DNA of 64,000 bases, taken from the NCBI GenBank assembly GCA_934479825.1, contig CAKSOW010000007.1, positions 19,892 through 83,891 of the forward strand, written 5' to 3'. Of this stretch, positions 2,838 to 59,264 are shown one piece after another; within the stretch, counting starts at the first letter, position 1, and every line of letters starts with the position of its first letter. The DNA comes from an uncultured Eubacteriales bacterium. Lineage in GTDB: Bacteria; Bacillota; Clostridia; Oscillospirales; CAG-382. A model generated the notes under the pieces. It saw only the letters and a list, made by a program, of their open reading frames with translations, searched no databases and had not been told where the DNA came from. A program made the translations under genes and the position numbers.

Positions 2838-4591
2838 AAGATTTCGGCGCATCGGAAAGCAATGTATCGCCGTCCGATATTCATAAAAAGCGCGACAAAC
2901 GGACCGAACGGAAAACGTTAAAATGGATTCTGTCCGTCGCACGCCCGGAAATTCCCACTGTGCTGTTTATTATCTTTGGCGAAGGACTTTGGGCAGTGTT
3001 CGGAACGGTCACGGCGTTGTTCTCCCGTGAGATTATCAATGGCGCGACGCGCGGCGACCGGGATCACATGTTTCTTTTCCTTATTATTTATTTAGTGGTT
3101 GCTTTGTCGCTTCTCGCTGTCCACGGTATCATGAACTATACTACCGAACGCTGCAAAGGACGGCTGGAAATCCTGTTCCGTTCGCGCGTGTTTGACAAAA
3201 TGCTTTCAAGACGCTATGCCGAGCTTCGCGAACATCACACCGGCGACCTTGTCAACCGCCTGTCGGGAGACGTGGGGGTCATTTCGGATGCGGCGGCGAC
3301 CATTATTCCGAATGTCGTCATGATGAGTGTGCGCCTTATCTGCGCCATGATCGTGTTAGTACGCTTAAACTGGCGTTTCGCGTTGGTGTTCAGTGTCGGC
3401 GGTATTTTAATTTTTTTGTTCGCACGACTGTTTAAAGGCATGGTGCAGGAATACCACAAGGCTATGCAGCAGGCGGACGGAAGAACGCGTTCGTTCTGGC
3501 AGGAAATTTTTGAAAACCTGATGGTCGTCAAATCCTTTGCCGGAGAGCAAAAGGCCGAAGAGAAGGCGTCGGCTTTGATGAACGAGCACTATAAACTCCG
3601 CATGAAGCGTTCGCTTATCGGCACGTTTTCCATGGTCGGAACGCGGGTGGTCGTGCGCATGGGACATTTGTTTGCCATCGGTTACGGCGCGTATTGCTTA
3701 CTTTCCGGAACAATGGATTTCGGAACGCTGACGGCGCTTAACCAATTGGTCGGTCAGGTTCAACAGCCGTTTGCCAACATGACCGGCATTATGCCGCGCT
3801 ACTACTCGGCGCTTTCGTCGGCTGAACGGCTTATGGAGATCGAAAACCTGCCAGAGGACACGGTCGGTACGCCGGTGAATGCGGCAGAAACCTACCGTAA
3901 GATGCAGAATATCGATGTGCAGGACATCACGTTCCGGTACGACGAAGACAAAACGGTTTTGGAGAATTGCTCTTGCGTGATTCAGAAGGGCGATTTTGTA
4001 TCGATTACCGGCATGTCGGGAATCGGAAAAAGCACCTTGTTCAAAGTGCTTCTCGATATCTACCCATTCGAGGCAGGGGAGGCTGTGCTTTGCACATCGG
4101 AGGGGCGGTTGCCTTTAACGGGCAGTACACGTACACTGTTTGCGTATGTACCGCAGGGAAATATGCTGTTTTCCGGCTCGTTAAGAGATAATCTGTTGTT
4201 CATGGCGCATGAAAACGTGTCGGATGAGCAGATACGGAAAGCGTTGGAATGCGCTTGTGCCGCGGAATTTGTGGACGCGCTGCCGGAAAAACTGGACACT
4301 GTTATCGGTGAAAACGGCGTCGGGCTTTCTGAGGGACAGATCCAGAGACTCTCGTTTGCAAGAGCCTTGCTTTCGGAGGCTCCAATCTTGCTTTTGGATG
4401 AAGCGACCAGCGCGTTAGATGAAGCCACCGAGGCGAAATTGTTAACCAATCTCAAAGCGCTGGATAACCGCACCTGTATTATTGTAACCCACAAAAAAGC
4501 GGCTCTTGCCGTGTGCAACCGTCATTTTGTGATAAAGGACAAGAAGTTTGTCGAGCCGGAAAACGGACTTGTCGGCGAGGTCCGCGTGTGA
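2834..4591 (+). CDS. ABC exporter, fused permease/ATP-binding protein (MsbA/type I exporter family)
   Basis: Six-TM N-terminal half followed by Walker A GMSGIGKST, signature LSEGQIQRL and Walker B ILLLDEATSALD. The start overlaps the ytfJ stop (ATGA). Confidence 0.85.
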   Translation: MKDFGASESNVSPSDIHKKRDKRTERKTLKWILSVARPEIPTVLFIIFGEGLWAVFGTVTALFSREIINGATRGDRDHMFLFLIIYLVVALSLLAVHGIMNYTTERCKGRLEILFRSRVFDKMLSRRYAELREHHTGDLVNRLSGDVGVISDAAATIIPNVVMMSVRLICAMIVLVRLNWRFALVFSVGGILIFLFARLFKGMVQEYHKAMQQADGRTRSFWQEIFENLMVVKSFAGEQKAEEKASALMNEHYKLRMKRSLIGTFSMVGTRVVVRMGHLFAIGYGAYCLLSGTMDFGTLTALNQLVGQVQQPFANMTGIMPRYYSALSSAERLMEIENLPEDTVGTPVNAAETYRKMQNIDVQDITFRYDEDKTVLENCSCVIQKGDFVSITGMSGIGKSTLFKVLLDIYPFEAGEAVLCTSEGRLPLTGSTRTLFAYVPQGNMLFSGSLRDNLLFMAHENVSDEQIRKALECACAAEFVDALPEKLDTVIGENGVGLSEGQIQRLSFARALLSEAPILLLDEATSALDEATEAKLLTNLKALDNRTCIIVTHKKAALAVCNRHFVIKDKKFVEPENGLVGEVRV

Positions 4592-15128: not shown

Positions 15129-15241
15129 ATAATGTACGGATATTATATCGGGCCGTCGTAGCGGCCAGTGCGGCTCGTTTGGAATAGTCAGGCGTGGCAT
15201 TTATGCCGGAAAAAATACAAAAACCGAAAGGAAACAGGCAA

Positions 15242-16681
15242 ATGAACGAAAAAGATATATGGAATCTTGTGCTTACCGGATTAAAGGAAAATCATAATTT
15301 GTCAGAGATGACCGTGAATCTTTGGTTTGACAGCATGTCCATGGAAAAGCTGACGCCGTCTACCGCCTATTTCCGCACGGATAACGATTTGAAAAAGCAA
15401 ATTATTGAATCCAAGTATGCCGATATTCTGAAAGAAGAACTGAAACACGTTTTGGGATTTGATGTGGAAATCGTTCTTGTGTCTACCGAGCATGGGTCGT
15501 TCGAGAGCCAGTTGAATGCCTTGCAGAACCGCTTGCGCTCCGAGCAGTTGGAGGAAGTCACCGAAAAACTCGATGCCGAGGATGCTGTCGGAATGCGTCA
15601 GACGGCGGCGCACTTCGGAAAGGATTCATCGGGAATCATGGTCTCCTCATCGCTTTTGCCGGAATATTCGCCGGAATACACTTTTGAAAACTTCGTCGTT
15701 GGACGTTCCAACGACCTTGCCTATAAAATGGCGTGGTCGGTTGCCAATCAACCGGCCGTTGTGGCAAATCCCTTATATCTGTACGGTTCGCCGGGACTCG
15801 GAAAAACGCATTTGCTGTATGCCATTACGCACTTGTTGAATCAGAATCATCCGGAATTCAAGATTATTTACGCCAAAGGCGAAGATTTCACCAATGAGCT
15901 GATTGAATCGCTGTCCAATAAAACGCCGATTCTGTTCCGTGAAAAATACCGCAGTGCCGATGTGCTTCTCATCGACGATATCCAGTTTATTGCCGGTAAG
16001 GAAACCATACAGGAAGAATTTTTCCATACCTATGAGGCGCTCTTTGAGGCAGGCAAGCAGATCATCGTTACCTCCGACCGTTTGCCCAAGGATATCAAAA
16101 CCCTTGCCAGCCGTCTGCTTTCGCGCTTTGAACACGGAATCATCGTCGATATCCAACCGCCGGACTTGGAGCTTCGCGTGGCGATCTTCAAACGCAAGGC
16201 GGAGGCGCTTGGCATGAATGTGCCGAACGACGTTTTAATGTACTTAGGCGAAAACATCAAGGACAATATCCGTCAGATCGAGGGAGCGCTCAAAAAAATG
16301 CGTGCGCTTGCCTTTATCCAAGGCACGGATATCTGCATGGAGCACGCCAAAACCGCCGTTGCCGATATTTTAACTGCCAAGGCTTCGGCTGTCACTCCGG
16401 AAAAGATCCTGACGTTTGTGTCCCAGAAATACGGCATTCCGACCGAGGACATCATCGGAAAACGGAAAACCGACGCCATTGCTTCGGCAAGACAAGTGGC
16501 CATTTACTTACTCCGCGAGTTAACCGATATGTCCTTTGCCAACATCGGAAAGGTCTTTAACCGCGATCATTCCACGGTGGTCGCGTCGGTCAACAAGGTC
16601 AAGGACCGCATGAAAGAAGATTCCAGTTTTGAAGCGCAGATCGACGATATGATGAAAGATGTGCGCGCTGCCGGCTATTAA
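15242..16681 (+). CDS. dnaA: chromosomal replication initiator protein DnaA
   Basis: Walker A GSPGLGKTHLL, AAA+ sensor motifs, and a domain IV helix-turn-helix (RQVAIYLLRELTDMSFANIGKVFNRDHSTVVAS). Start set at MNEKDIWN (ATG at 15242) after AAAGGAAACAGG. Confidence 0.95.
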   Translation: MNEKDIWNLVLTGLKENHNLSEMTVNLWFDSMSMEKLTPSTAYFRTDNDLKKQIIESKYADILKEELKHVLGFDVEIVLVSTEHGSFESQLNALQNRLRSEQLEEVTEKLDAEDAVGMRQTAAHFGKDSSGIMVSSSLLPEYSPEYTFENFVVGRSNDLAYKMAWSVANQPAVVANPLYLYGSPGLGKTHLLYAITHLLNQNHPEFKIIYAKGEDFTNELIESLSNKTPILFREKYRSADVLLIDDIQFIAGKETIQEEFFHTYEALFEAGKQIIVTSDRLPKDIKTLASRLLSRFEHGIIVDIQPPDLELRVAIFKRKAEALGMNVPNDVLMYLGENIKDNIRQIEGALKKMRALAFIQGTDICMEHAKTAVADILTAKASAVTPEKILTFVSQKYGIPTEDIIGKRKTDAIASARQVAIYLLRELTDMSFANIGKVFNRDHSTVVASVNKVKDRMKEDSSFEAQIDDMMKDVRAAGY

Positions 16682-21841: not shown

Positions 21842-21876
21842 CAGACCGCAGATTTCTTTTGGAAATCTGCGGTCTG
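21842..21876 (+). terminator. terminator-like hairpin after nadE (no strong T-tract)
   Basis: 15-bp stem CAGACCGCAGATTTC / GAAATCTGCGGTCTG. Its 3' half is re-used as the boundary of the tandem repeat that follows. Confidence 0.55.
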
Positions 21877-22284
21877 TCTGTTGCAAAAGTCTCCGTGACA
21901 TATCGGGCGAAGCCCGATTTAAATTTAAATTTGAAAAAATCGGGGACATGCGCCACGATTTTTTCTCAGATAGATTCGCGAGTGTCAAAAAGCGGAGACT
22001 TTTTGGCATGAGGCGCGAGCGTACGAATCTGGTTCGTGTCGTAAAACGAAGTTTTGCGACACGCGCAAAGAAATCCGCGGTCTGTCTGTTGCAAAAGTCT
22101 CTGTGACATATCGGGCGAAGCCCGATTAAAATACAAATTTGAAAAAATCGGGGACATGTGCCACGATTTTTTCTCGGATAGATTCGCGAGTGTCAAAAAG
22201 CAGAGGCTTTTTGGCATGAGGCGTGAGCGTACGGATCTGGTTCGTGTCGTAAAACGAAATTTTGCGACACGCGCAAAGAAATCC
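21869..22284 (+). repeat. two tandem copies (208 bp each) of a structured intergenic repeat, family 1
   Basis: Unit 1 spans 21869-22076 and unit 2 spans 22077-22284; both start GCGGTCTGTCTGTTGCAAAAGTC. The two units are near-identical by direct comparison, differing by scattered substitutions. Further copies lie at 39659-39850 (inverted) and 59037-59232. Confidence 0.9.
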
Positions 22285-33227: not shown

Positions 33228-33254
33228 GCTTGCCGCCCTGAAAGGGCGGCTGGG

Positions 33255-34330
33255 GAGCCTCTGTTACTTTTCGGAAAAGTAACAAAAGGGACGGTTTTAC
33301 GTTACTTTTTGCGGCGTGCAAAAAGTAACCAAAAAGCACGCGGGACTTCGTCCTGCGACCTCGGTTCAAAACCCGTGCGGTGCGGTTTTAGGTAAAAATT
33401 GAAACGCTCAGCGCATTAAGATTTTTCACAAAAATTTATTAGTGCCGCGATACGCACGGCCATGTTTTGAACCGGTGGAAAAGGGCGATTGCAGTGGAAA
33501 CGCAGAATCGGATTTTGCGGAAAATCGAGGTTGCGGTGCGGGCTTGACGCCGCAAGCGGTCGATGAAAAGAAAAATTGTACGTTATGTTTGTTGCAGTGG
33601 GAAAGAGAAATTGGCGTGGGATGTTAGAAAACTTAGCGTAATACTATGGCTTGGCATGACACAAAAGGTGTGTGGGCTGGCTGAAATTTTAAGATTTATT
33701 CCTACTTATTTGTGCGCGGAAAAAATGGAATTTTGGTATTTTTGAAACTTTTCGTTTCCTCAAAACATAGCGTACTGTCTGCAAAAAAGCAACTCTCACC
33801 AAACTTTCCTTTTTTTGAAAAACTGTTATCTGTTGTTTAAAAAACAGTATCCCACCAAAACCACCCATTCCATGAAACACATAACCTGCTGTCCACCCAA
33901 ATCGAATTCTGCCTTTTTATAAAAAACCACATATCCTTGCGTAGTAAAACACCCCTTTCGCACCGGTTCAAAATACTCCGAGCTATATGGCACAAGGCTG
34001 CAAATTCTTACAAAAATTCTTGATAGTTACACGACTTGCGTTTTAGTAAGTAATTCCCACGCTCGGAATTTTGAACCGTACTTGGGGTATCCAGAGGGGT
34101 GTACCCCTCTGGTGTACTTTTTGGTTACTTTTTCGTACAAGCGAAAAAGTAACATTAAAACGCCCCTTTTGCTTACTTTTCGCAAAGGCGAAAAGTAACG
34201 TAAAAACGTCCTTGGGGACTTTTTTGGGGGGCTTGGGGCACGCCGCAAAAAAGTAACAGAAAAACGTCCTCTTTTGCTTACTTTTCGAGAACCGAAAAGC
34301 ACCCTTTTTGAGGCTTTTCGGAAAAAGAAA
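33255..34330. repeat. family 2 structured non-coding locus, copy A (hairpin arrays, two CGGTTCAAAA-bounded IR elements, conserved core)
   Basis: No ORF above 103 aa and none conserved with copy B. Homologous in reverse complement to 56625-57445. Details are given in the findings. Confidence 0.85.
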
Positions 34331-34368
34331 AAAAGCACCGATACGGATTTCCGTATCGGTGCTTTTTG
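34321..34368 (-). terminator. bidirectional rho-independent terminator (serves the 34398-37364 gene)
   Basis: 13-bp stem GCACCGATACGGA / TCCGTATCGGTGC flanked by A- and T-tracts. Confidence 0.85.
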
Positions 34369-34397
34369 CGTAAGATCAATGCTTATGAAAAAAGGGC

Positions 34398-39658: not shown

Positions 39659-39850
39659 CGTGTCGCAAAACTTGGTTTTACGCCACGAGCCAGATTCGTG
39701 CGCTCGCGCCTCATGCCAAAAAAGCTGACGCTTTTCGACACGCGCGAATCTATCGGAGAAAAAATCGTGGCGCGTGTCCCCGATTTTTTCAGAATTCAAT
39801 TTGAATCGGGCTTCGCCCAAAAAAGCCGAAAGACTTTTTTAACAGACTTA
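39659..39850 (-). repeat. family 1 structured repeat, inverted copy
   Basis: Starts one base after the stop codon of the 38828 gene. Its reverse complement aligns with 21869-22076 and 59037-59232 (core GGGCGAAGCCCGATT...AATCGGGGAC...GATAGATTCGCG...TTTTGGCATGAGGCG...TTTTGCGACACG). Confidence 0.85.
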
Positions 39851-47344: not shown

Positions 47345-47495
47345 AACCATATTTTCAGGGCAGGGAGCATTTCCCTACCGGCGGTAAAGTCCGAGGGCGG
47401 AGCGGCGTTTCCTATCTTTTACGCACCCGCAGATCCGGTAAGTTTCCAAAAACAATTCCGGAACCGACAGTATAGTCTGGATAAAGAGAAGATGT
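47345..47495 (+). promoter_or_regulatory. FMN riboswitch (RFN element)
   Basis: Conserved RFN core strings CAGGGCAGGG...CCCTACCGGCGGTAA...CCGACAGTATAGTCTGGATAAAGAGAAGA, located upstream of a RibU-like gene. Confidence 0.85.
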
Positions 47496-47591
47496 GGTAA
47501 GCGTTATTTAAGCAGTTTTGCCGGATAACAGCTTATCTTGTTATGTCCTGAGACGAATTGTCCCGGGAATTTTTTGTTTTGAGGTGTTATT

Positions 47592-48161
47592 ATGCAAAAA
47601 AGCTTAAAAAAGACGGCTTTTGTCGGCGTTTTGTCGGCTATGTCGTTTGTCTTGTTTCTGTTCCCGAAATTTCCGATTCTGGCGGCGTTCCCATGGCTCG
47701 ATCTTGATCTCTCAGACGTGCCGGGCTTGTTTGCCTCTGTTATGATTTCGCCGCTTGCCGGACTTCTTGTAGCGCTGATCAAAAATGTGCTCCATTTGGC
47801 TGTTACATCCACAGCCATGATTGGCGAACTGTCCAATTTCCTGATCAACGGTTCCTTCGTTTTCGCAGTTGGGCTCTTGTATCACTATCTGTTTAAAGCG
47901 TCCGGAAAAAGCAGTATACTCGCGTTTTCTCTCGTTCTGGGCTCGGCTGTACAGATCCTTGCCGCGGTTCTTGTCAATTACTTCCTTATGATTCCGATGT
48001 ATTCGGCATTCGTCAATTTCTCCGAGCTCGGCGGCGCAGAAAAATATATTCTTGCCGGCGTAATTCCGTTTAACCTTATTAAGGATATTCTTGTTTCGGC
48101 GATATTCTTTGCCTTGTTCCGTCTGCTTTACCGGAAATTTCATGGTTATTTACATAAATAG
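47592..48161 (+). CDS. ribU: riboflavin ECF transporter S component
   Basis: Similar to B. subtilis RibU/YpaA as recalled (LDLSDVPG vs IDFSDVPA; AGVIPFNLIKDIL vs AGILPFNMIKGIV). The upstream FMN riboswitch supports the call. Confidence 0.75.
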   Translation: MQKSLKKTAFVGVLSAMSFVLFLFPKFPILAAFPWLDLDLSDVPGLFASVMISPLAGLLVALIKNVLHLAVTSTAMIGELSNFLINGSFVFAVGLLYHYLFKASGKSSILAFSLVLGSAVQILAAVLVNYFLMIPMYSAFVNFSELGGAEKYILAGVIPFNLIKDILVSAIFFALFRLLYRKFHGYLHK

Positions 48162-56588: not shown

Positions 56589-56627
56589 GCCGCCCGATGG
56601 CTTGATCATCGGGCGGCTTTTTCTTTT
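56589..56627 (+). terminator. rho-independent terminator (second of two consecutive hairpins)
   Basis: Stem GCCGCCCGATG / CATCGGGCGGC followed by TTTTTCTTTT. It is preceded by the hairpin AGAATGCAAGGGC / GCCCTTGCATTCT. Confidence 0.8.
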
Positions 56628-57445
56628 CCGGAAAAGCCCGGATAGGGGCTTTTCGTTTCGCGAAAAGCATATAAGAGACGGTTTTTGTCTTACTTTTTCG
56701 CTTGTACGAAAAAGTAACCAAAAAGTACACCAGAGGTCTGCTGACCTCTGGGCTCTGGGGAACGGTTCAAAATTCCGAGCGTGGAGTTTATTTGTTAAAC
56801 CGCAAGCCGTGTGACTATCAAGGAATTTTACGGAAATTTGCAACCTTGTGCCATATAGCTCGGAGTATTTTGAACCGGCGCGAGACGGCGGTTTTACTGT
56901 GTAAGGATTTATGATTTTTTATGAAAAGGCATACTCTGATTTGGGTAGACAGCAGGTTATGTGTTTCATGAAAAGTGAGAGTTTGGTGGGAGGTTGTTTT
57001 TGAGAGGACAGAAAGCTATTATTTAGGAAAACGGAAAGTTTTGTAAGAGTGCAAAAATCCGATTTTCTACATATATACAAACCGCAGGTTTACTTCTACT
57101 CAACCCACCCCAACTTTCCATTTCCACCGCACCAAATATAACGTACAGTTTCCCTTTTAAACGATCGCTTGCGGCGGCAAGACCGCACCGCAACTTCGAT
57201 TTTCCACAAAACCCGATTCTGCGTTTGTACTACACTTCCGTTTCGCACCGGTTCAAAGCCTGAAAGCTGTTTTAGAGACAAAAAACTACAATTTTTATCA
57301 AAGGCATGCCTGTGTAGAGCTTTGAACCGCTCTCCGGGAGTCCAGAGGGCTATTTTGCAGCGGCGCTTCGCCGCCCCTCGGTCTGCTTTTGGTTACTTTT
57401 CGCAGAGGCGAAAAGTAACAGAAAAACGTCCTTTGGGAACTTGGG
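56625..57445. repeat. family 2 structured non-coding locus, copy B (reverse-complement homologue of 33255-34330)
   Basis: Manual alignment of the reverse complement with copy A. Matching blocks: 44 nt with 43 identical, 33 nt with 32 identical, and 68 nt with 60 identical. The order of architectural modules is the same in both copies. Confidence 0.85.
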
Positions 57446-57471
57446 GCACCGCCAAAAACTATAATTTCCAT

Positions 57472-57516
57472 AAAAAAAGACATGCGGTGCCACAGAGGTT
57501 CCTGTGACACCGCATG
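57472..57516 (-). terminator. rho-independent terminator of the fucosidase gene
   Basis: 15-bp stem CATGCGGTGCCACAG / CTGTGACACCGCATG, with a minus-strand T-tract (plus-strand AAAAAAAG at 57472-57479). Confidence 0.85.
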
Positions 57517-57569
57517 CCAAAACTCCAATTCTTTTGCTGCCTTTTTTAAAAGGACAAAAGCCCGTATTG

Positions 57570-58895: not shown

Positions 58896-59036
58896 GGGAG
58901 AACCTCCTTGCAGTGTGTTGATTTTGAGTGCGTTTTGGTATCTTTATTCTATCATAACCACAGGATTTTGCCATGTGTTTTTTACCGAAAAATATGTGTT
59001 TTTCGGTAAAATAAAACCGCTCCGGATTTTCGGAAC

Positions 59037-59232
59037 GGTTCTGTCTGTGACAAAAGTCATAGGACTGTTTCGGGCAAAGCCCGATTCAAATTGAATTTTG
59101 AAAAAATCGGGGACATGTGCCACGATTTTTTCCCCGATAGATTCGCGAGTGTCGAAAAGCGTAAGCTTTTTGGCATGAGGCGCGAGCGCACGAATCTGTT
59201 GCGCGTCGCAAAATGAAATTTTGCGACACGCG
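59037..59232 (+). repeat. family 1 structured repeat, fourth copy
   Basis: Aligns with 21869-22076 over the whole core. Flanked on both sides by similar hairpins (AAAACCGCTCCGGATTTTCGGAACGGTT on the left and AAAACCGCTCCGATTTCTCGGAGCGGTTTT on the right). Confidence 0.85.
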
Positions 59233-59233
59233 T

Positions 59234-59264
59234 AAAAACCGCTCCGATTTCTCGGAGCGGTTTT
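59234..59264 (-). terminator. rho-independent terminator of the surface-protein operon
   Basis: Stem CCGCTCCGA / TCGGAGCGG with a T-tract on the minus strand. Confidence 0.7.

Follow-up and report, generated by a model that had tools for sequence, protein, structure and literature searches.

The 1.17-kb gap at positions 33228-34397 of the window (the whole 64,000-nucleotide stretch analysed here, from contig CAKSOW010000007.1 of an uncultured Eubacteriales bacterium) is one copy of a multi-copy family of intergenic elements, with at least 45 copies in a related genome. With an estimated probability of about 0.58, the element is a DNA-level interspersed mosaic palindromic repeat of the kind represented by bacterial interspersed mosaic elements (BIMEs), REPINs, BOX elements and MITEs (miniature inverted-repeat transposable elements), and would be mobilised by an enzyme. 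The family is probably selfish, recombination-prone DNA that occupies intergenic space in a few uncultured human-gut Clostridia. Its kinship with these repeats, and with the repetitive extragenic palindromic (REP) sequences from which BIMEs are built, is based on its many copies, extragenic position, mosaic composition, compensated hairpins and involvement in rearrangements.

A search pattern for the long-stem module of the element (described below) matches 71 metagenome loci, all of them from human gut where the source is recorded. Most come from one assembly, ERZ857757, at a uniform coverage of 7-9x. A pattern for the terminal region matches four contigs of one GTDB representative metagenome-assembled genome (MAG; uncultured Clostridia, Hadza gut sample); eight further matches, in genomes of unrelated taxa, are assumed without inspection to be due to chance. 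Annotation of the loci with pieces of both window copies gives 54 complete elements: 45 in ERZ857757, four in the MAG, three in other samples and two in the window. The figure of 45 is a lower bound for the ERZ857757 genome. The MAG and the ERZ857757 organism belong to the same species, as loci L001 and L013 are 97.9% identical over 3.1 kb. The module pattern has no match among viral contigs, and blastn gives none among plasmid and phage records. Short-read assemblies of this lineage break at the repeats: window-species contigs end either at the element or within it.

The window is an ordinary spore-former chromosome (dnaA, mfd, parA-like, gdpP, YtfJ, SipL), and the neighbours of other copies that were scanned with Pfam are likewise ordinary chromosomal genes, several of them housekeeping. 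They include RNase HII, an M19 dipeptidase, GyrA/ParC, UDP-GlcNAc 2-epimerase, an MFS transporter and an alpha-L-fucosidase. A crude call of open reading frames (ORFs) at 25 copies places 10 between convergent, 11 between tandem and four between divergent neighbours. These contexts bear on the suggestion that the gap is a cis-regulatory or effector site of the adjacent WYL regulator. Adjacency is the one point in its favour, as the element begins right after the stop codon of the WYL+WCX gene. More than 50 other copies adjoin unrelated genes, and the second window copy (copy B) lies between a large protein of no assigned family and a fucosidase gene, so the adjacency is coincidental and the implied regulatory link is not borne out. 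One-off decaying junk is ruled out by conservation across species. The chance that either explanation is correct is close to nil.

Architecture and conserved pairing

The gap extends from the stop of the WYL/WCX gene (33227) to the stop of a minus-strand gene of 1007 amino acids (34398), and the two flanking genes are convergent. An earlier reading of the DNA, made from its letters only, had described the gap as free of ORFs, had found no reading frame common to the two window copies and had noted that both ends carry the same modules in mirror orientation. All three descriptions hold. Internal ORFs are at most 103 amino acids long, none keeps its frame across copies, and a systematic ORF survey across the copies finds no consistent frame. 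The left half can be aligned with the right half in reverse complement, clearly over the terminal ~230 nucleotides (nt) and more weakly further inward; copy A, as the element in the gap is called here, thus has terminal inverted repeats of ~230 nt, as MITEs do. The strings cited in support were found where they had been placed: GTAACCAAAAAG at 33325-33336 (+) and 34117-34128 (-), and GGTTCAAAA at 33363 (+), 33465 (-), 33965 (+) and 34069 (-). Half-sites of the CGAAAAGTAAC type occur 10 times in the window, where chance would give 2.0, and all but one of the 10 are within the two loci.

The element is a two-fold symmetric mosaic whose halves mirror each other around a variable, AT-rich centre. 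From the outside inward, each half consists of one to several REP-like hairpin units, GTAACCAAAAAG, a GC hairpin with a T-run, a long-stem module and an arm. Each hairpin unit combines a covarying outer stem with a conserved inner one (CTTTT(T)CG/CGAAAA(A)G), and the spacers are AAAACGTCC; the units number one to several per flank in variable combinations, forming a mosaic of short palindromes as in REPs and BIMEs. The long-stem module (80-115 nt) is bounded by CGGTTCAAA...TTTGAACCG and folds into a stem of ~20 bp. The L-arm (~165 nt) and R-arm (~125 nt) are conserved in sequence and have little structure. The order is always module, L-arm, centre, R-arm, module. The L-side module is of type a or c, the R-side module is of type b, a or c, and the orientation of the modules relative to the arms is constant in 54/54 copies. 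Solo or truncated modules also exist. As single-stranded DNA the element folds better than shuffled sequences, with z-scores of -3 to -3.8 for the modules and -4.5 for the whole.

In copy A, the outer left flank (33232-33283) contains a GC hairpin (GCCGCCC-TGAAA-GGGCGGC) followed by TGGGGAGCC and a hairpin unit, GTTACTTTTCG/GAAAAGTAAC (33263-33283), that recurs at the edges of other copies. The left terminal hairpin unit (33301-33329; GTTACTTTTTG-CGGCGTG-CAAAAAGTAAC) is followed by an A-run and GC hairpin (33330-33361; GCGGGAC..GTCCTGC), which on the minus strand reads as a hairpin plus TTTTTGG and resembles an outward terminator. The left module (33362-33475) is a long-stem hairpin cassette of type a, with the bounds CGGTTCAAAAC and GTTTTGAACCG and the second stem CCGTGCG/CGCACGG. 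It is followed by the L-arm (33476-33640), which is conserved in sequence, G-rich on the inward strand and of little consensus structure, and by the AT-rich centre (33641-33839), in which the GC skew changes sign near 33700 and whose length differs among copies. The R-arm (33840-33963), also conserved and C-rich on the plus strand, is a distant inverted homologue of the inner L-arm. The right module (33964-34078) is of type b (bounds CGGTTCAAAAT and ATTTTGAACCG, second stem CCGAGC/GCTCGG). Beyond it are the right GC hairpin (34091-34123, +), with CCAGAGGGG-TGTA-CCCCTCTGG followed by TGTACTTTTTG, which is again outward and terminator-like, and the right terminal hairpin unit (34124-34153; GTTACTTTTTCG-TACAAG-CGAAAAAGTAAC), the start of whose loop (GTAC) is complementary to the GTAC preceding the T-run. 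A further array of hairpin units (34166-34300), spaced by AAAACGTCC, completes the right flank. The intrinsic terminator of the 1007-amino-acid gene (34330-34367, -) is outside the core and marks its boundary; the terminators of the genes flanking copy B are likewise outside the element, at 56589-56617 (+) and 57479-57518 (-).

The sequence-only reading had also reported a second copy at 56.5-57.6 kb, with blocks almost invariant between the two. The copy exists (~56620-57450), but its blocks are 79-88% identical to those of copy A and so are not almost invariant. Copy B is inverted relative to copy A, 22.5 kb away, and differs by large indels in the centre and by its left-side module. The terminator of the upstream gene (834/838 amino acids) is a hairpin of the CGCCCGATGG..CCATCGGGCG type that recurs at other loci. 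Hairpin units, GTAACCAAAAAG (56714-56725) and a GC hairpin occupy 56640-56762; on the minus strand the GC hairpin has the form of a terminator, from 56751 to 56730. The type b module (56763-56877, inverted) and the R-arm (56880-57001, reverse-complemented relative to copy A) are followed by a centre (57002-57100) that is ~90 nt shorter than that of copy A. The reverse-complemented L-arm (57101-57234) contains a patch of ~100 nt unlike the corresponding stretch of L102 and L103, with identical sequence on both sides of it. The short type c cassette (57249-57329) has the bounds CGGTTCAAAGC and GCTTTGAACCG, and both sides of its bounding repeat have changed together. The remaining stretch (57330-57419, +) comprises a long variant of the GC hairpin, a T-run and a terminal hairpin unit (57391-57419); within the loop of this unit, at 57408, homology with the contigs of eight other strains stops.

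Hairpin stems are preserved through compensatory differences between module types and between end classes. The bounding repeats co-vary by type (AAAAC/GTTTT in a, AAAAT/ATTTT in b, AAAGC/GCTTT in c and AAATC/GATTT in the sp2 subfamily described below), as do the second stems of the modules (CCGTGCG/CGCACGG, CCGAGC/GCTCGG and CCGGTCG/CGACGG). The earlier claim that the GC hairpins vary in sequence yet keep their pairing is also correct, and is illustrated by a double compensatory change between one pair of strains that are otherwise 99% identical. A second layer of pairing links the T-run to the adjoining unit. In 81 of 85 unique ends drawn from the window and L001-L083 (for example window 34113-34140), the 4-7 nt preceding the T-run are the complement of the first bases in the following hairpin-unit loop. 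This complementarity spans four classes (GTAC, GCGTG/CGTGC, CTGC and CTAC), and the count was not equalled in any of 1000 shuffles. Its predicted topology is that of a pseudoknot or an alternative pairing.

Arm identity is 79-84% between the two window copies. Against copies from the other species, the window arms have a median identity of 81-84% (best 87-90%), and copies within the ERZ857757 species have a median of 82%; the window species and the ERZ857757 species were compared by their element sequences alone. The centre is less conserved than the ends. A second subfamily, sp2, shares this architecture but has strongly diverged arms and two additional module types, and is found in a further species; its host genes are 83% identical to their orthologues in the ERZ857757 organism. 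At L035 12226-13184 and L055 6538-7564, adjacent genes that are orthologous between two species (83% nucleotide identity) enclose elements of different subfamilies in the same intergenic region, and these can be aligned only at their terminal hairpins. Where the main subfamily has one stretch (..GAAAGTTTGG.GTAAAAC.ATGGCTTGGCA) in its centre, the sp2 centre (L035 12690-12880, L021 900-1010) has about three tandem copies of a homologous unit of ~57-60 nt.

The possibility of an RNA gene

Read outward, the GC hairpin followed by TTTTTGG scores as an intrinsic terminator (a GC stem-loop with a T-run), a function that is predicted. The pattern is found at 34091-34112 (+) and at 56751-56730 (-), each followed by TGTACTTTTT, and recurs in the 85 unique ends. 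Each of the two window copies, and nearly every other copy, has it at both ends, as would be expected of a multi-copy RNA gene family in which two divergent non-coding RNAs (ncRNAs) of ~300 nt start from the centre, each consisting of a C-rich arm, a hairpin module and a terminator. The conserved arms fit this model as well: their outward strand has CCCACC/CCUCC-like motifs, and one R-arm pair alternates between A-U and G-U on that strand. No positionally conserved sigma-70 promoter accompanies these terminators, however. At most three of 29 aligned full copies share a promoter column, on either strand, and sigma-54 and extracytoplasmic function (ECF)-type motifs inspected by eye have the wrong spacings.

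The arms also lack the structure that an RNA would be expected to conserve. RNAalifold gives 48 R-arms a consensus of -2.5 kcal/mol with six pairs, none of them compensatory. For 45 L-arms it gives -9.0 kcal/mol with two compensatory pairs, a consensus that collapses to -1.6 kcal/mol when sp2 is included (63 sequences). Structure is confined to the modules and terminal hairpins and is comparable on both strands. The minimum free energy of the modules is slightly better on the inward strand (mean difference 2.7 kcal/mol), the opposite of what outward transcripts require. A strand test that is independent of composition, comparing G:T with A:C mismatches in the closing stems, gives 72 against 47; this bias is unconvincing because the copies are not independent. 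Some sp2 ends have TCCCCG in place of the T-run, and a regulator encoded by 90 or more such genes in one genome would be unprecedented.

An Rfam search of the whole window at the gathering threshold finds nothing except an FMN riboswitch elsewhere. Among the families without a match are ROOL, GOLLD, OLE, raiA and HEARO; the sequence-only reading had itself placed the locus in no ncRNA family. Permissive searches (E<=10 for the interior of copy A, E<=1 for copy B) return weak matches on terminator and flank hairpins that are far below gathering. With no Rfam match, no conserved promoter, almost no consensus structure in the arms and no clear strand bias, the large structured ncRNA first put forward as a candidate is not borne out, and the pair of divergent transcripts is very unlikely. 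An R-arm peptide that appears conserved between the two window copies was rejected on other grounds: its ATG is lost in L004 and it is interrupted by a stop in L007. Reading the element as neither an RNA gene nor a WYL-associated site prevents mislabelled annotation.

Exchange, rearrangement and mobility

Strains differ in patches. L004 (from the MAG) and L071 (from ERZ857757) show no differences in the flank, the GC hairpin or the initial ~45 nt of module b, beyond which identity falls abruptly to ~80% for the remainder of the element; one of them has c as its far module and the other has a. L006 and L077 are 95% identical over the R-half and right flank, with L-halves 84% identical and left flanks unrelated. 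In general, flanks are 95-100% identical between strains while internal patches drop to ~80%. Copy B differs from L102 and L103 at three places within sequence that is otherwise identical: the GC hairpin has the double compensatory change, one outer hairpin unit is swapped, and the patch of ~100 nt contains ~20 differences. Copy A differs from L106, L107 and L109 by similar patches in the L-arm and module b.

Insertions are nested within the hairpins. In L106, L107 and L109, the left type-1 GC hairpin contains an insert of ~117 nt (GACTCCTTGAAACATGGTCG...GACGCGTCCGAG) that is absent from the window (site 33338-33356). This presence or absence at an orthologous site makes the insert a candidate small mobile element. 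The same insert is found in L016, L068 and L076, and in truncated form in L025 (3770-3830). A near-perfect palindrome of 25 nt, CTTGAATTTACAATGTAAGTGCAAG, is located in hairpin-unit loops of L015 (~100-130, reverse complement) and L093 (~4400-4425); in L093 the half-stems that it connects come from different types of unit. L106 has a related palindrome of ~25 nt at the corresponding loop, just before the contig end.

Gene order around copy B also varies, with three arrangements known within the species. In the window and L102, the 834-amino-acid gene is followed by the element and the fucosidase, and in L098 element B is beside the fucosidase gene. In L103, the 834-amino-acid gene is followed by the element and an AraC regulator. 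In eight contigs (most of those sampled from the window species), an 892-amino-acid gene is followed by hairpin units without the core element and then by the fucosidase. These arrangements break inside a hairpin-unit loop (window 57408) or between hairpin units, and breakpoints between strains fall in hairpin loops; the repeats thus mark the junctions of strain-level rearrangements. The pattern suggests a large inversion or translocation in the window species that would have been mediated by the element repeats. Gene-order junctions in hairpin arrays were recorded at window 57408 and 57440-57450 (L092-L095, L097, L099-L101, L102 and L103).

The proposed model for the element is as follows. 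The element would act at the DNA level, through hairpins in single-stranded or cruciform DNA. An enzyme acting in trans would recognise its ends and arms and copy or mobilise the family; the best guess is a hairpin-recognising HUH/Y1 transposase similar to the REP-associated tyrosine transposases (RAYTs), with the arms and terminal hairpins serving as a recognition platform. Gene conversion would both homogenise and shuffle the copies, and may begin at breaks at hairpin tips. SbcCD-type nucleases cleave hairpins. Effects on the host would be side effects, with outward terminator-like hairpins insulating neighbouring genes and the repeats acting as hot spots of inversion and rearrangement.

Some of these observations could instead indicate a site selected by the host, in which the arms bind a chromosomal protein for nucleoid organisation, insulation or programmed recombination or inversion; a protein-bound architectural site was also among the candidates of the sequence-only reading. 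The arms are conserved in sequence without structure, at ~82% identity both within and between species, and two species whose orthologues are 83% identical carry the element in one intergenic region, albeit as different subfamilies. The window copies lie 22.5 kb from each other in inverted orientation, and rearrangements at these loci distinguish strains. A fixed host site is difficult to reconcile with the free exchange of modules, hairpin units and nested inserts and with their variable number per copy. Moreover, the majority of the window-species contigs sampled place another gene beside the fucosidase, with hairpin units but no core element in the spacer. The junctions lie in the flanking hairpin arrays and not at one fixed core site, and no recombinase gene is linked to any copy. 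A host-selected site is therefore considered unlikely.

Several results weigh against mobilisation of the repeat at the DNA level. Neither a target-site duplication nor a common terminus is found at the boundaries of repetitiveness of 29 copies; the repeat zone covers 851-1220 nt, approximately the whole intergenic space, and fades into hairpin arrays. A clean empty site for the whole element was not recovered, as look-ups of flanking proteins led to contigs ending at the repeat or to rearranged neighbours. All-against-all clustering of 813 flanking ORFs reveals no transposase or recombinase beside any copy, and none recurring in ~0.55 Mb of flanking DNA (L001-L083). A tblastn search of 0.73 Mb (window and loci) with a remotely related IS200 TnpA as query, a weak test, finds nothing (best E-value: 0.3). 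The flat arm identity of ~82% fits sequence constraint, by the host or the element, or continued exchange better than a single or recent burst. Finally, the outward hairpin and T-run are well conserved, though a purely DNA-level model has no need of them. Pfam scans of the genes enclosed between neighbouring copies identify ordinary chromosomal genes and no transposase, and scans of 30 window genes identify no partner transposase.

Of the explanations offered from the sequence alone, a decayed or non-autonomous mobile element with long terminal inverted repeats (TIRs) comes closest. Copy number, intergenic position, mosaic composition and polymorphic nested insertions are in its favour; the description as decayed does not stand, and no target-site duplication, sharp end or transposase was found. 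In its classical form, the element would be a MITE, an internally deleted insertion sequence (IS) with ~300-bp TIRs that a full-length relative's transposase moves by cut-and-paste. The long inverted terminal similarity, the many ORF-less intergenic copies and a centre less conserved than the ends are consistent with this. However, none of the 54 copies has an enlarged centre holding an ORF, as an autonomous relative would (core lengths are 315-518 nt), and the copies are ~18% diverged and not near-identical. Together with the lack of target-site duplications, of sharp ends and of a recurrent transposase in the flanking DNA, this makes a classical MITE quite unlikely.

Three other features of the window were noted. 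A second, unrelated intergenic repeat family, with a unit of ~208 nt, is present at 21862-22277 (two tandem units), 39659-39847 (inverted) and 59029-59236, and at 2660-2860 of L092; its copies are located between genes, are 81-94% identical and have no Rfam match at the gathering threshold. The FMN riboswitch (RF00050, 76.5 bits) is at 47347-47497 (+), upstream of an ORF at 47592-48161. After a DnaA-family gene (15194-16681; Bac_DnaA and Bac_DnaA_C) comes a radical-SAM gene instead of dnaN, with mfd, parA-like and gdpP genes nearby. The window may be near the replication origin, or the DnaA-family gene may be a dnaA paralogue.

Comparison with known systems

Several resemblances were considered and rejected. 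An inverton is not supported, as the modules have one orientation in 54 copies, there is no conserved internal promoter and no recombinase is nearby. The module ends TTTGAAC and GGTTCAAA break the integron attC consensus R''(RYYYAAC)...R'(GTTRRRY) at its R positions, and there is no nearby integrase gene. Resemblances to a tRNA T-loop and to Tn7 ends were dropped because the defining features are absent. The Rfam families ROOL, GOLLD, OLE, raiA and HEARO are similarly several hundred nucleotides long, non-coding and found in Firmicutes, and HEARO is multi-copy; the element described here differs in having no covariance-model match and in having arms without conserved structure.

MITEs such as the Correia elements of Neisseria are also non-autonomous and ORF-less, with inverted ends and with terminators or promoters able to affect neighbouring genes. 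The present element is larger, its copies are diverged and mosaic and not near-identical, and a search for a target-site duplication, for sharp ends and for a parent IS found none of them. The BOX elements of Streptococcus pneumoniae have the organization boxA-boxB(n)-boxC and are roughly 100-300 bp long. No cognate transposase is known for them. The element shares with BOX a Firmicute host, a modular, non-coding, high-copy and intergenic nature and strong potential for secondary structure. BOX has neither the two-fold symmetric composite plan nor the conserved arms, and similarity in sequence is not expected.

REPs of the tagged type carry GTAG or CGTC as a conserved, unpaired tag where the stem begins, and the published CGTC families have stems of 8-9 bp and loops of 4-5 nt (PMC3733652). 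In the present element, CGTC recurs in the spacer AAAACGTCC(C/T)TTT, ~6-8 nt from the stem, and the stems and loops differ from the published ones. The survey of tagged REPs lists eight phyla, and its main text includes neither "Firmicutes" nor any Clostridi- name (PMC3733652). The module resembles a REPIN in having a variable spacer between two conserved ends in inverted orientation (CGGTTCAAA..), which form a long hairpin like that of a REP doublet. As with REPINs and RAYTs, the family appears to persist across species and includes solo or truncated modules. Unlike REPINs, the modules are nearly always at fixed positions of a larger element and have no GTAG tag, and no single-copy RAYT gene flanked by repeats is seen in the window or the loci.

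There is also a resemblance in habit to the BIMEs of Enterobacteria. Both are extragenic, number tens to hundreds of copies per genome, are mosaics of short palindromic units and linkers, mostly follow the 3' ends of genes, have compensated stems and are hot spots of rearrangement. BIMEs lack the conserved core of 0.65-0.85 kb, with its unstructured arms of 125-165 nt and modules of 80-115 nt. The host here is a Gram-positive member of the Clostridia, and no RAYT was found in the window or the loci. A literature search found no description of the family, and the element cannot be assigned to any specific named family; it differs from those compared in its size, its two-fold symmetric composite plan and its long, unstructured but conserved arms.

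A further proposal, tentative and on balance doubtful, is that the element represents an undescribed class of large "nested-palindrome" repeat in Gram-positive gut anaerobes. Such repeats would grow and spread as palindromes are placed in hairpin loops through single-stranded DNA intermediates, and their arms would be the platform for a dedicated trans-acting enzyme. If so, the class would make up 1-2% of the genome (45 copies of ~1 kb), would drive large inversions as well as gene conversion, and would correspond in Firmicutes to the REPIN-RAYT system, with a quite different architecture and an enzyme that is possibly domesticated and single-copy. If the preferred reading of the element as an interspersed mosaic palindromic repeat is correct, the REP/BIME/REPIN phenomenon, which has mostly been studied in Proteobacteria, extends to Firmicutes in the form of a much larger architecture.

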